Part shown: piece after piece, positions 22,375 through 36,586 of the stretch
Position numbering within the stretch: position 1 is the first letter of the stretch
Layout: the number at the start of each line of letters is the position of its first letter
Source: a virus
Lineage: Duplodnaviria; Heunggongvirae; Uroviricota; Caudoviricetes
Reading direction: 5' to 3' (one strand)
Length of the DNA stretch: 47,426 nucleotides
IMG/VR virus record: IMGVR_UViG_2778261504_000010
Span: 1-47,426 of that record
Translations under genes and position numbers: made by a program
The notes under the pieces: generated by a model
Databases searched by the model: none
What the model was told of the DNA's origin: nothing
Seen by the model: only the letters and a program-made list of their open reading frames with translations

Positions 22375-22557
22375 TCAGTTCTGTGAGCACTGCCGGATGC
22401 CGTCAATAATCCGGCAGACCTGCGCCGCCGCGTCAAACAGCTGTCCCGTTCTGTTAATGTCTGTGCATCCCACCGGAAGCAACATCATCAGAAACAGGGC
22501 CAGAACACAGCGCGCGGCTTTACGTGGCGTTCTGTGGGTCCAGTAACTTCTGTTCAT
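22375..22557 (-). CDS. small lipoprotein, candidate spanin
   Basis: 60 aa, hydrophobic N-terminus with LPVGC lipobox-like motif, directly downstream of endolysin. Confidence 0.4.
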   Translation of the reverse strand: MNRSYWTHRTPRKAARCVLALFLMMLLPVGCTDINRTGQLFDAAAQVCRIIDGIRQCSQN

Positions 22558-22570
22558 AACCCGTCCCGCA

Positions 22571-22951
22571 TCAGCGTTTTAACTGGAAATGAGGCCCGTC
22601 TTTCAGCGTTTTCCAGTCTCCGCCCCATTCGATGGCGACACTCAGCTCTGCGGCAGCCTGTTTAAAGGCTCGGGCGATTTTTTCGTATAACGGCCAGTCC
22701 CATGAAATGGAGCTACCAACGTAAGCCACGACATCAACGGCATCGCCAGTAAGGTGACGGCTGTTCATGGTCTGGCTCTTACCTTCAGCGACAAGTTGTT
22801 TCTGACGTTCTTTCGTGCGTAAACCTTCGGTAATACCAAAATCGACGTCCGACAACGCCAGCGCACGGCGTACAACCGCCACCAGTTGTGGCTTTACGCC
22901 AGCCAGATTTTTCTCGCTACGTTGACTGAAACGGAATTTTCCCGACATATT
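22571..22951 (-). CDS. endolysin, peptidase M15-type
   Basis: Start taken at internal MSGKFRF whose ATG overlaps the upstream stop; motifs SRHLTGDAVD and WGGDW recalled as typical of M15 peptidases. Confidence 0.65.
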   Translation of the reverse strand, partial: NMSGKFRFSQRSEKNLAGVKPQLVAVVRRALALSDVDFGITEGLRTKERQKQLVAEGKSQTMNSRHLTGDAVDVVAYVGSSISWDWPLYEKIARAFKQAAAELSVAIEWGGDWKTLKDGPHFQLKR

Positions 22952-23235
22952 CACCTCCGCAGTAACGAAAGGATTTTTGACAAATTCCCGTGCGCCCACA
23001 CGATAAGCGCACAGAAAACCAGATTCAGCGCCACAACCAGCCAGCTGGAGTGCGTGTATGTACCGGACAGCCAGCGAAACGGGATGATGATGTAGCCGAG
23101 CATCAGCCAGTACGCCAGCCAGGTAATCATCGGTTTATGCGCCGCACCGTGGCGGCGATACACAAACAACCCCAGCACAATGGCGAGACACAGCCAGACG
23201 TTCACGATACCGGCAAGGCTACTTTCCATTTCCAC
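22951..23235 (-). CDS. small membrane protein (holin/antiholin candidate)
   Basis: 94 aa, two to three hydrophobic helices, upstream of endolysin. Confidence 0.5.
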   Translation of the reverse strand: MEMESSLAGIVNVWLCLAIVLGLFVYRRHGAAHKPMITWLAYWLMLGYIIIPFRWLSGTYTHSSWLVVALNLVFCALIVWAHGNLSKILSLLRR

Positions 23236-24097: not shown

Positions 24098-24565
24098 TTA
24101 ATCAAAAAGCCCCACCTGGGTGGGGCTTGTCAGCGAAGTCTGTTTTTGTCGTCGGTGTATCAACTGCCATGCGTACCGGTCTGAAATGCCGTAACGGGGA
24201 CAGAGCAGTGCCAGCGCCTGCCGGTGTGAGCATCCGTCTTTTACATGCTGCTGTAAATCAGCCATAAAACGGGTGTTACGCAGGGCACGTAATGCATGAT
24301 CGCAACGGGGAATGTAAAACGGAGCACCGCCAAGAAAGCGGATCAGTTTGTTGATTTCGTCTTCGGTCAGCACATCATGTAACAGGGCATGGACGCCGCC
24401 GGTGCGTTCAGCGTGTGCGCCGGTTTTACCGCTTAACGTCACGCCACCAAAAGAACGGATTAACCGGGTCAGGGCGGGGAAGCCAATCACGCTAATCAGT
24501 TGTTGCACGGAGTCGGGCAGCAGTGCCTGCGCATCGCGAAGATCTGTTTCACTGAAGGTCTGCAT
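24098..24565 (-). CDS. Mor/C-family transcriptional activator
   Basis: 155 aa with C-terminal helix-turn-helix-like segment GISDRYAWQLI; located just upstream of lysis and late genes. Confidence 0.6.
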   Translation of the reverse strand: MQTFSETDLRDAQALLPDSVQQLISVIGFPALTRLIRSFGGVTLSGKTGAHAERTGGVHALLHDVLTEDEINKLIRFLGGAPFYIPRCDHALRALRNTRFMADLQQHVKDGCSHRQALALLCPRYGISDRYAWQLIHRRQKQTSLTSPTQVGLFD

Positions 24566-24620
24566 GATGGCGTCTCCGGTAGTAACTTACTGTTATTATA
24601 GCCATACATGATCGCCTGTA

Positions 24621-24660
24621 CAGACCACAAAAAAGCCCCTGCAAGGCAGGGGCTAAACTA
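24621..24660 (-). terminator. rho-independent terminator after the secreted-protein gene
   Basis: Stem gcccctgc/gcaggggc (24635-24653) followed on minus strand by TTTTTTG. Confidence 0.55.
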
Positions 24661-24664
24661 AGTC

Positions 24665-25141
24665 TTATTTAGTCAGGTCTAGAATAACCAGGCCTTTTCT
24701 TGATTCTATTTGCTCTTTACCAAAAACAAACGAATCAAAACAATCCATACGATATTCTTTAAACTGATTTCTTGAACGTTCCAGAAACTGCCTGTCATCC
24801 CTGATAACGTTAGACCAGTAATCCTGTAGCTGGTTTTTCATTTTTATGCAGGAACCATACACAGGATCAAGCGGGTCGTCCCCCAGTTTACTGGCCTGTT
24901 CATCCAATTGTTTTAGTCCTTTTTTGATATTCTTCCACTCTTCAATATTTCCCTGCTGATACTGCGATGCAGCTTCTGGCATAGCGTAATAAAGTTTTCC
25001 ACTTTCCCGAAGCATCTGTTCAGCCAATGGCTTCATATCCTGATAACGTTTCAGTTCCTTTTGCGCCTGTTCCTCTGTCTGTGCCAGCACAGAACAAGAG
25101 AAAATAACCCCTACTAAACAAAACAACCATTTTTTCATCAT
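24665..25141 (-). CDS. secreted protein of unknown function (AT-rich cargo gene)
   Basis: 158 aa; N-terminal signal peptide MMKKWLFCLVGVIFSCSVLA; visibly AT-rich compared with neighbours. Confidence 0.6.
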   Translation of the reverse strand: MMKKWLFCLVGVIFSCSVLAQTEEQAQKELKRYQDMKPLAEQMLRESGKLYYAMPEAASQYQQGNIEEWKNIKKGLKQLDEQASKLGDDPLDPVYGSCIKMKNQLQDYWSNVIRDDRQFLERSRNQFKEYRMDCFDSFVFGKEQIESRKGLVILDLTK

Positions 25142-25536
25142 TGATTTCTCCTTCTTGAATCTTTAACCAGCGCCACCATCACCCCAAAAAGCTGTTCATC
25201 CGTCAGCCATTCGATCACATGTTGCTTATACATGTGAGATGCCAGTCCTTCTGCATACGCCCAGGAACGACCTGCATCAGCCAGCAACGCTTCAATTTTG
25301 GATAATACTGATTTTCTGCTCATTGCAACATGAGGGCGGCGACCTTTACCAGCGGGTGCCTTGCGCGGGAATCCCTGTTCGTGCATGTATTCCCGGATGA
25401 TGCGCAGTTCATCGAGATTGCAGCGTGTGGTGCTGGTTTTACCGGTCAGGCGGGCCAGCGTCTGGCGATAAAGGGCATCATCCCACCCCAGATACGCCTG
25501 ACCAGCTTTAATGGCCCCGATCATCTTTTTCAGCAT
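25138..25536 (-). CDS. GemA-like protein (Mu gp16 family)
   Basis: Start taken at internal MLKKMIGAIKAGQAYLGWDD; resembles GemA family as recalled. Confidence 0.55.
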   Translation of the reverse strand: MLKKMIGAIKAGQAYLGWDDALYRQTLARLTGKTSTTRCNLDELRIIREYMHEQGFPRKAPAGKGRRPHVAMSRKSVLSKIEALLADAGRSWAYAEGLASHMYKQHVIEWLTDEQLFGVMVALVKDSRRRNQ

Positions 25537-25786: not shown

Positions 25787-25940
25787 AATGACCAAAACAC
25801 TACTTTTGGCAGACCAAAAAACATGTTTTGGTCTGCATTTGATTACTGTTTAAACAACCCGCGAAATCAGGAACGTCGAGTTACGGTGATGGCTTTCATC
25901 GTGTTGTTGCTCCGTGATTCAGAAAATTTCATGCCGGGCC

Positions 25941-26351
25941 TCAGTATGTGAAATAGACAGTTGCCACGCCGTTATAGTGATCAAACGACACGGCGTTTAC
26001 CTCATAACTGGCCGGGAGCTTCGAGCCAAGAACGTATCCGGGCCACGTTTTCCATGGAATTTCTCTGCTCTCACTGTCGCCATATACCGTACATCCCAGT
26101 GAGCCTACAGCTTCATAAGAACGCTTACCGCACGTTATGAACCCCAGATGTTGCTTACTGCCCTTAACAGAAATCGGGAGAGCACTGGCTGATGCGTTAG
26201 CAGCATCCCGCTCCTGTTGGCTTGCGATATTCGCAGAGTTCGCAGCAGCTGCGGCAGCAGTGGTTGCAGCGGTAGATGCCACAATAACTGCTGAAGCCTG
26301 CGCCTGCTGGGTAATGGTCAGCAATGCCGCCACAAAAATCATTTTCTTCAC
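25941..26351 (-). CDS. secreted protein of unknown function
   Basis: 136 aa; signal peptide MKKMIFVAALLTITQQAQA then Ala/Thr-rich low-complexity linker and Cys-containing C-terminal domain. Confidence 0.6.
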   Translation of the reverse strand: MKKMIFVAALLTITQQAQASAVIVASTAATTAAAAAANSANIASQQERDAANASASALPISVKGSKQHLGFITCGKRSYEAVGSLGCTVYGDSESREIPWKTWPGYVLGSKLPASYEVNAVSFDHYNGVATVYFTY

Positions 26352-35170: not shown

Positions 35171-35459
35171 TGGTTTTATAGGCCAAGAACCCTTGGCCTT
35201 ATCTAATTGATACAATCAACCCGATCTAAATCATCATAATCATCTTAAAGCCTGCTTGGTTAAATGTATTAAAAACAACCTAAGTTTGCTGCATAATCTG
35301 AGCAAATTCACCCAGAAAAAAACGTAAAAAAAAGCATTTTTGCGCATTTTCTTCAAAACGATCCAGAATCGGTGAAATCTCCCACATCCCGCACCAATCA
35401 AGGCCTACAGGCTTATATTGACTGCTCGGACTCAGCCCAGAATTGATCACCACCCCACA
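35171..35459. mobile_element. Mu-like prophage terminal region (transposase-binding end) and junction with host
   Basis: Non-coding; AAAACG/CGTTTT-type motifs at 35321-35370; element ends ...ccaca at 35459, where the ynfF reading frame breaks. Confidence 0.5.
35181..35205 (+). terminator. terminator-like hairpin after the 209-aa gene
   Basis: Stem ggccaag/cttggcc (35181-35198) followed by T-rich ttatctaatt. Confidence 0.4.
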
Positions 35460-36586
35460 CAACCCTGACAAATATAAGCAGGTTTTGCTGAACCGATCTC
35501 TCGTGCCAACTGGATAATTTTTTCTGCCGGGATGCTGGTGATTTTTGCTGCCCATTCCGGCGTTTTAGCTATGCCGTCAGGCCCTTCGCCCAGAATATAG
35601 GCTTTATAATGCGCGTTACGTGGTGCGTTGGCGGGCAGCGTTTTTTCATCGTAACCAACACAATATTTGTCGAGAAATGGCTGATCGACCATGTTTTCAG
35701 TAATCAGTACCCAGGCAATCGCACAGGCCAGTGCGCCATCGGTGCCAGGGCGAATGGGCAGCCATTCATCTTCACGCCCGGCAGCAGTGTCGTTATAACG
35801 TGGATCGATGACGATCATGCGTGCGTTTGAACGTTCGCGGGCTTGCTCGACGTAGTAAGTGACACCACCGCCGCTCATCCGCGTTTCTGCCGGGTTATTT
35901 CCGAACATAACGACCAGTTTCGTATTGGCGATATCATCCGGGCTGTTGCCATCATTGGCACCGAACATATAACTCATTGCGGCACTGATCTGTGCGGTAC
36001 TGTAGCTGCCATAGCGACTGAGAAAACCACCGCAAGAGTTCATCAGACGGTACGGGACGTTTGAGTTGGTGATGTTTCCGCCATCTACGCCTGTTCCGTA
36101 CAGGACATGTACAGCCTCATTGCCGTAATCTTTCAGGATCCGCCGAAGATTATCACTGATGGTATCCAGGGCTTCGTCCCAACTTATCCGTTCAAATTTA
36201 CCTTCACCGCGCTTGCCGACGCGCTTCATGGGATATTTCAACCTATCAGGATGATTCATCCGTCGGCGGATAGAGCGCCCGCGTAAACACGCTCGAACCT
36301 GATGGTTACCGTAGACGTCGTCACCTGTCGTATCAGACTCCACCCAGTACACGGTGTCATCTTTCACATGCAAACGTAACAGACAGCGGCTCCCGCAGTT
36401 AACGGTGCAGGAACTCCAGACCGCTTTCTCTTCTACCGGAGCCTCTGCCGCCCGGACCATTTGGGAAAATGGCAGAGTGAAAGCACTGCTTGCCAGCGCA
36501 AGACTGCCAAGTGCGGAGGTTTTCATCAGACTTCTACGGCTGATTTCAGCCTTCATGAGCGCCTCTGTGGTATGGATTTTCATCAT
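35450..36586 (-). pseudogene. ynfF: ynfF', 5' fragment of DMSO-reductase-family catalytic subunit truncated by the prophage
   Basis: 378 aa with Tat motif SRRSLMK; paralogous to the full-length downstream gene up to ...AKPAYICQG, then CVGW-stop where the paralogue continues WGPQRQ. Confidence 0.75.

Follow-up and report, generated by a model that had tools for sequence, protein, structure and literature searches.

T4 Spackle (Sp, gp61.3), annotated as 'spackle periplasmic' in the T4 record, is a helical protein made early in the lytic cycle, and its target is the gp5 tail lysozyme. T5 Llp and the Cor proteins of phi80 and N15 are phage envelope proteins, made early or from the prophage, which protect the cell from superinfection. 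Phage morons encoding envelope proteins are also known, and the definition of a moron by Hendrix and colleagues is quoted in PMC4378225. For Mu, PMC3820752, together with its reference 71, describes the gem operon (gemA-gemB/mor) as constitutively expressed in lysogens and as affecting host phenotype. Low-level Pe/Pe* transcription of the semi-essential region has also been reported in Mu lysogens. The gene considered here, which we call X, is read as encoding a soluble periplasmic binding or blocking protein that would guard the phage-harbouring cell against superinfection or other envelope attack, a reading to which a probability of roughly 0.4 is attached.

X lies in a stretch of 47,426 nucleotides (the window) which is a Mu-like prophage: Mu transposase, a B-like ATPase, DUF3164, DUF2786, a holin-endolysin module, DUF1804 and TerL are present, together with a Mu-type portal and head, a contractile tail, Baseplate_J, gp48 and a tail fibre. 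In relatives, a DNA methyltransferase gene is found beside TerL. The repressor end of the prophage adjoins a truncated molybdopterin oxidoreductase gene (35447..36586, minus strand), and the copy in EPEC E2348/69 is inserted in eutC instead (L024, 15508..15945); the different insertion sites fit random Mu-type transposition and not site-specific integration.

X occupies 24665..25141 on the minus strand (158 codons), with gemA upstream and a Mor-family gene downstream. The former (25138..25536, minus strand; Pfam GemA, 2.6e-18; phrog_286) is the final backbone gene of the early operon; its longest ORF reaches 25662 from a GTG, and its RefSeq relatives, labelled 'gp16 family protein', begin at a Met equivalent to 25536. 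The latter (24098..24565, minus strand; Pfam Mor, 1.2e-6; phrog_836, 2.8e-42) encodes a Mor/C-family late transcription activator and is the single Mor of the window, a tblastn search across which found no second Mor-family copy. A Xenorhabdus Mu-like prophage (L019, 4535..6019) carries GemA, HI_1489_N, Mor, X, a second Mor-like gene and a lysozyme in that order, and the 54% identity of the window Mor to that second, C-like copy suggests that the window Mor is the late (C-equivalent) activator. An earlier reading of the DNA letters, referred to below as the original prediction, had placed an AT-rich 158-aa ORF between GemA-like and Mor/C-like genes. Both points are borne out, the position by the coordinates and the Pfam and PHROGs matches, and the composition by a GC content of 0.398 for X against 0.514 for GemA, 0.545 for Mor and 0.533 for the whole prophage.

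The same prediction gave X a signal peptide, and this also holds. The N-terminus (MMKK / WLFCLVGVIFSCSVLA / QTEE) has a basic n-region, a 16-residue hydrophobic h-region with a mean Kyte-Doolittle value of 2.4 and a V-L-A cleavage motif, and so shows the basic n-region, the h-region of 7–16 residues and the small residues at -3 and -1 that define a Sec signal. Residues 1–20 (MMKKWLFCLVGVIFSCSVLA; 25082..25141, minus strand) form the predicted signal peptide, with signal peptidase I expected to cleave after V-L-A and before Q. An equivalent n/h/c layout is found in 17 of 17 aligned family members, with A-x-A as the cleavage motif in most and V-I-S or V-L-S in two; taken from these sequence features and their conservation, the assignment of X as a gene for a predicted Sec-type exported protein is supported. 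The conserved cleavage motif points to a released soluble protein and not to a membrane-anchored i-spanin. A lipoprotein was considered and rejected, as no lipobox with an invariant +1 Cys is present: the sole N-terminal Cys of X, Cys16 (in FSCS), is not conserved, being Phe in the relatives P0003 and P0005 and absent in remote members. Elsewhere in the early region, a 136-aa ORF (25941..26351, minus strand; phrog_8805) begins like a signal peptide (MKKMIFVAALLTITQQAQA/SA), with a hairpin downstream (palindrome 25809..25836), and the E2348/69 relative holds different genes there, so that this ORF may be another exported cargo gene.

The limits of the variable segment carrying X were placed by junction comparisons of the window with L002, L025, L026 and L027, and with L046. 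Homology to prophages in which the position is empty stops after ...GGTGGCGCTG (25168) and restarts at GTCTGTACAGG (about 24624), the breakpoints lying about ten codons ahead of the gemA stop and at the -35 element of the Mor promoter. The cassette between them (24624..25167, minus strand) consists of the gemA C-terminal tail with a ribosome-binding site, the cargo ORF and a terminator. The AAGGAG ribosome-binding site of X (25148..25153, minus strand) stands 6 nt before the ATG, within the last gemA codons, and the two genes overlap in an ATGA made up of the X start (25141..25139) and the gemA stop (25140..25138), a junction type that is also found in a second allele of X (allele B) and in a 167-aa chimera described below. 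From this arrangement we infer that X is probably translationally coupled to gemA.

No promoter was found upstream of X by consensus scans at the standard threshold; the only matches, at 8 of 12 positions, lie inside backbone genes. Only about 27 nt upstream of the X ATG differ from the empty-slot backbone, leaving no room for a promoter. The cassette thus appears to have no promoter of its own, although the scans are consensus-based and a weak or unusual one is possible. Lacking its own promoter, coupled to gemA and with its ribosome-binding site inside gemA, X is therefore not a self-contained moron; from its operon position, it is predicted to be co-expressed with gemA, after induction or infection.

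Downstream of X, a hairpin with a T-run had been described in the original prediction, and an intrinsic terminator is present there (AGCCCCTGCCTTGCAGGGGCT and T-run; 24628..24654, minus strand). Its 9-bp stem (24654..24634), of which seven pairs are G-C, begins ten nt past the X stop codon and is followed by a run of six T's, the closing stem T included (TTTTTTG); the RNA fold has an energy of -22.6 kcal/mol (z = -4.4 against shuffles). The further claim that X has a terminator of its own is not supported: in an empty slot the same hairpin, and then the same promoter, come directly after GemA, and the terminator therefore appears to belong to the early operon, and so to the slot rather than the cargo. 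A second terminator variant (AACCTCCGCAAACGCGGAGG and a six-T run) goes with allele B and with a 112-aa cargo; neither of the two terminator sequences tracks the cargo strictly, and that of the empty slot is the one seen in the window. This corrects the reading of the locus, in that the terminator appears to be the operon's and the cargo would ride on gemA transcription and translation. The predicted sigma-70-like promoter in front of the Mor gene (TGTACA-16-TATAAT; 24595..24622, minus strand; 10 of 12 positions matching) is identical in all slot variants and marks the downstream slot boundary. This near-consensus element stands directly before the sole late activator, and would have to be kept silent in the lysogen.

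The use of the slot was surveyed in 5,426 complete E. coli genomes, 58 of which carry GemA and Mor at 96% identity or more; slot classes were assigned by GemA-Mor span length, and one representative of each non-X class was read directly. X occupies 23 of these backbones, as allele A in 12 (the window type, also in L001 from E2348/69) and as allele B in 11 (L002). Another 16 have one of two unrelated exported proteins, namely a 112-aa protein (MKKLLLLILTLCFTGISHA/SD..., phrog_5882; 11 genomes, L025) or a 174-aa protein (VKSKIINSIIIGSLLLSTPVFA/DW..., phrog_19473; five genomes, L026), and the remaining 19 are empty (L027). Among 18 IMG/VR loci, seven are empty, three have allele A, two allele B, five the 112-aa protein and one a new 167-aa protein. 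This last is a chimera that matches X exactly over the first 13 residues, in protein and in DNA, and has a mature part with 35% identity to the 174-aa family, so that recombination must have occurred within the signal peptide. In the Salmonella-type backbone, the slot is filled by a member of the X family or by a 93-aa protein in which two hydrophobic stretches are taken as transmembrane helices. The occupants thus fall into four unrelated families, all AT-rich (GC 0.35–0.43), and every occupant seen is, as judged from its sequence, envelope-targeted. A Klebsiella relative has an empty slot, with GemA directly adjoining Mor, and the Pseudomonas D3112 group likewise has GemA next to Mor (PMC4378225). 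A homologue of the 112-aa protein follows GemA in a Mannheimia phage, which makes the post-gemA position a cargo site across Mu-like phage families.

These comparisons show that X is a dispensable cargo in a recombination-prone slot of an enterobacterial Mu-like transposable prophage, a slot bounded by the gemA stop and the early-operon terminator. It is dispensable for the phage cycle because sister prophages have empty slots. The original prediction had taken X for cargo and proposed presence or absence across related Mu-like prophages as a check; X proved variable, being missing from the empty slots of E. coli (19/58), IMG/VR (7/18) and Klebsiella and from 50,697 deposited phage genomes, and so is not a conserved core component.

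The position of the slot at the early/late junction invites the proposal that X is a lysis accessory, acting as a periplasmic antiholin, an endolysin regulator or a spanin-like part which tunes lysis timing. X always lies one or two genes upstream of holin and endolysin, in remote relatives it is directly ahead of one or the other, and a periplasmic, helical protein with two cysteines superficially resembles Rz i-spanins and the T4 RI antiholin; in addition, a 60-aa lipoprotein after the endolysin has no obvious i-spanin adjoining it. Such a role is nevertheless improbable, as X alleles differ (30–68% identity) where the lysis genes are unchanged, and the lysis genes differ (M15, GH108 or GH24 endolysin) where X is unchanged. 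The empty slots of the sister prophages, the terminator that stands between X and the late genes and the conserved cleavage motif, mostly A-x-A, argue in the same direction. An identity as an Rz-like i-spanin is likewise not supported, the cleavage motif being kept, the gene being in the early operon upstream of the terminator and a third of the sisters lacking it.

The 60-aa ORF itself (22375..22557, minus strand; phrog_7528) lies directly after the M15 endolysin gene, has a lipobox (LLPVGC) and may encode a lipoprotein of the o-spanin or u-spanin-like kind. Endolysin modules have been exchanged among otherwise near-identical prophages (window 22571..22999, minus strand, versus L001 3783..4328 and L013 8206..8751): an M15 peptidase is encoded in the window and in STEC strain 08-00022, and a GH108 enzyme with a PG_binding_3 domain in E2348/69 and a Yersinia relative.

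Within the X-bearing class, divergence is concentrated in X. A comparison of the window with L002 gives 98% identity for GemA and Mor and 67–68% for the X proteins, alleles A and B. In a pair of Salmonella prophages the figures are 97% for GemA, 99% for Mor and 30% for X, the DNA ceasing to be homologous exactly where X lies. The dN/dS of X is 0.10–0.15 (Nei-Gojobori), indicating purifying selection, and its dS (1.06–1.29) is far above that of the flanks (0.13–0.37), indicating that the alleles are much older than their host backbones and have been moved by recombination. Such a pattern marks a polymorphic locus for specificity or protection and not decay in place. The tail fibre of the window has a counterpart at 99.3% identity only in an empty-slot prophage, and the endolysin/holin type varies independently of the X allele. 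As X does not covary with tail fibre, endolysin or holin, its partner is unlikely to be phage-encoded; receptor-matched self-exclusion of the Llp/Cor type was rejected because tail fibre and X assort independently. In the sister prophage of STEC 08-00022, which carries allele B, an IS66-family element lies in the tape-measure gene (L028, 5157..7772); this copy is probably defective, with its X gene still intact.

The original prediction had offered a lysogenic-conversion or envelope-modifying factor as a possibility. The allele pattern would also suit a lysogenic-conversion factor serving the host, in which X, present at a low level in the lysogen, neutralises a periplasm-acting toxin (a T6SS effector, a colicin or a lysozyme-like enzyme) or alters envelope physiology or virulence. 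Small, exported, AT-rich, highly polymorphic and swapped among near-identical elements, the X alleles are like orphan immunity genes and classical morons, and the exact window protein is present on at least 993 E. coli contigs, E2348/69 included, annotated only as 'hypothetical'. Some expression of X in lysogens is possible through its coupling to gemA, though only by analogy with the low-level transcription reported for Mu lysogens and with reports on the Mu gem operon (PMC3820752 and its reference 71); however, the GemA encoded here is only a distant relative of Mu GemA, and the cassette has no promoter. Further points against this proposal are the confinement of the family to Mu-like phages, never beside toxin genes or in non-phage contexts, and the absence of matches of X to known immunity or lysozyme-inhibitor families. 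A conversion role is therefore considered rather unlikely, and protection of the phage-harbouring cell is kept as the preferred reading.

The X family is restricted to phages. A word-indexed search of 5.8 billion proteins returned 10 clusters, and 11, all with a signal peptide, came from exhaustive profile searching with HMMER over 1.84 billion cluster representatives. The named hosts (Escherichia, Salmonella, Yersinia, Edwardsiella and Xenorhabdus) are all Enterobacterales, and every member is called 'hypothetical'. All eight members with usable context sit in Mu-like prophages, none of them beside toxin genes or outside a phage (a Yersinia cluster, P0019, has no context); the order is GemA-X-Mor, or GemA-Mor-X ahead of the lysis genes, and X is the last early cistron each time. 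Megablast and tblastn searches of the deposited phage genomes found no X homologue, Mu itself included, and no X locus was found in GTDB representative genomes. Literature searches on the X protein accessions and on a gemA-mor hotspot found nothing specific.

Searches against Pfam, PHROGs, NCBIfam, PADLOC and PDB sequences gave no match to X and no homologue with a known role, and scans of the first four with X, its remote members and the alternative cargos yielded nothing informative; with the PADLOC defence HMMs, for which X, the alternative cargos and three of the remote members were scanned, no match was returned at E up to 1. None of the 17 family members matched the Pfam or NCBIfam models for lysozyme inhibitors (Ivy, MliC/PliC, PliG, LprI/DUF1311) or Spy/CpxP at E up to 5, and a single 'C-type lysozyme inhibitor' line (E = 0.12) spans the signal peptide only. 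The 17-sequence alignment extends down to 23% identity, with lengths of 147–172 aa and a signal peptide throughout, and only Gly64, Cys98, Trp109 and Cys134 are invariant.

AlphaFold2 predicts mature X (residues 21–158; 24668..25081, minus strand) to be a four-helix bundle (H23–62, H67–86, H96–114 and H117–148), with a pLDDT of 79 from the single sequence and a pLDDT of 86 and pTM of 0.75 with the 17-sequence alignment. The mature protein has exactly two invariant cysteines, Cys98 and Cys134, each 17–18 residues from the H3-H4 turn, so that in the model they would face each other at the same height on adjacent antiparallel helices. They likely form a stapling disulfide suited to the oxidising periplasm, as placed from helix positions. 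X is a real gene, as the retention of its length, signal peptide and two cysteines down to 23–30% identity, the low dN/dS and the confidence of the model indicate.

Fold class and compartment are common to X and the periplasmic four-helix-bundle sensor domains of the Tar/PcaY/QseE type, and X could on that account be a free-standing copy of such a domain, one that acts as a decoy for, or modulates, a signalling or chaperone system of the host periplasm. This is very improbable: identity is 2–13%, de novo designed bundles and talin score equally well, and the likeness is what any long up-down four-helix bundle would yield. Foldseek with the X model gave no match at E ≤ 0.001 (best 0.27 in the PDB and 0.033 in the viral set), a PDB profile search with the family returned only designed helical bundles, and no Pfam 4HB_MCP or sensor family matched. 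In contrast to the sensors, X has no sequence signal of this kind, no transmembrane helices and no cytoplasmic signalling domain, and would be a free soluble protein.

For the preferred reading, in which X is a periplasmic binding or blocking protein, a course of events can be proposed. As the anatomy of the locus suggests, X would share the gemA transcript, being the final cistron of the early operon, and its translation would be coupled to gemA through the ATGA overlap and the strong AAGGAG. The product would be exported through Sec and cleaved after Ala20, and the mature protein would fold in the periplasm as a soluble four-helix bundle stapled by the Cys98-Cys134 disulfide. It would then bind or block a variable partner that the phage does not encode, possibly a component of incoming competitor phages or another envelope-acting agent, and might thereby serve as a superinfection-exclusion or envelope-protection factor by a logic analogous to that of T4 Spackle and Imm, P1 Sim and T5 Llp. 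The early-operon position fits exclusion during lytic growth; protection of the lysogen would need expression under repression.

A phage-restricted exported family, a slot used only for the envelope and the exchange of old alleles together narrow the role of X to the cell envelope, with partners outside the phage. As a tentative and rather doubtful generalisation, Mu-like phages of Enterobacterales and Pasteurellaceae may have, at the far end of their early operon past gemA, a dedicated exchange site for unrelated envelope-targeted proteins, carried as promoterless cassettes of ribosome-binding site, ORF and terminator which sometimes recombine in a shared signal peptide; X would then be the founding member of a novel family of soluble superinfection-exclusion proteins of the periplasm, whose alleles would be old and balanced. 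What is new is the uncharacterised, phage-restricted family itself and its place in a reusable promoterless cassette slot at the end of a Mu-type early operon, a slot that appears to take only exported or membrane proteins and to recombine even within the signal peptide. Much unannotated function resides in the accessory genes of prophages from pathogenic E. coli, Salmonella and Yersinia, and X is a tractable candidate for a mechanism of periplasmic exclusion or protection that would be new.

In comparing X to the described systems, T4 Spackle offers a parallel in superinfection exclusion: both are phage-encoded, small, dispensable and provided with a Sec signal peptide. Mature X is, however, about twice the length of Spackle, and homology was rejected, as hhalign of the family profile aligns only residues 2–34, the signal peptide, at a probability of 28%, with no PDB hits. 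Llp and Cor differ from X in being lipoproteins matched to the receptor of their own phage, whereas X has no lipobox and does not covary with the tail fibre. The parallel with the Mu gem operon is that X would be a gemA-coupled cistron at the far end of the early region; unlike this prophage, Mu has no gene between gemA and mor and no X homologue. The Mannheimia phage vB_MhM_3927AP2 provides a comparable case in gp15 (phrog_5882), which lies immediately downstream of GemA in a Mu-like phage, bracketed by terminators, and is 38% identical to the 112-aa protein that replaces X in sister prophages. It is unrelated to X in sequence and sits after the early terminator, whereas the X slot is before it.

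The lambdoid morons (bor, lom and HK97 gp15) share with X their presence or absence between adjacent conserved genes, a deviant AT-rich composition, a downstream terminator and an envelope-located product, so that X shows the variable occurrence and the composition of a moron. It departs from them in having no promoter of its own, in its apparent coupling to an upstream core gene and in a terminator that seems to be the backbone's; unlike theirs, its slot is reused by several unrelated exported proteins, with recombination inside the signal peptide.
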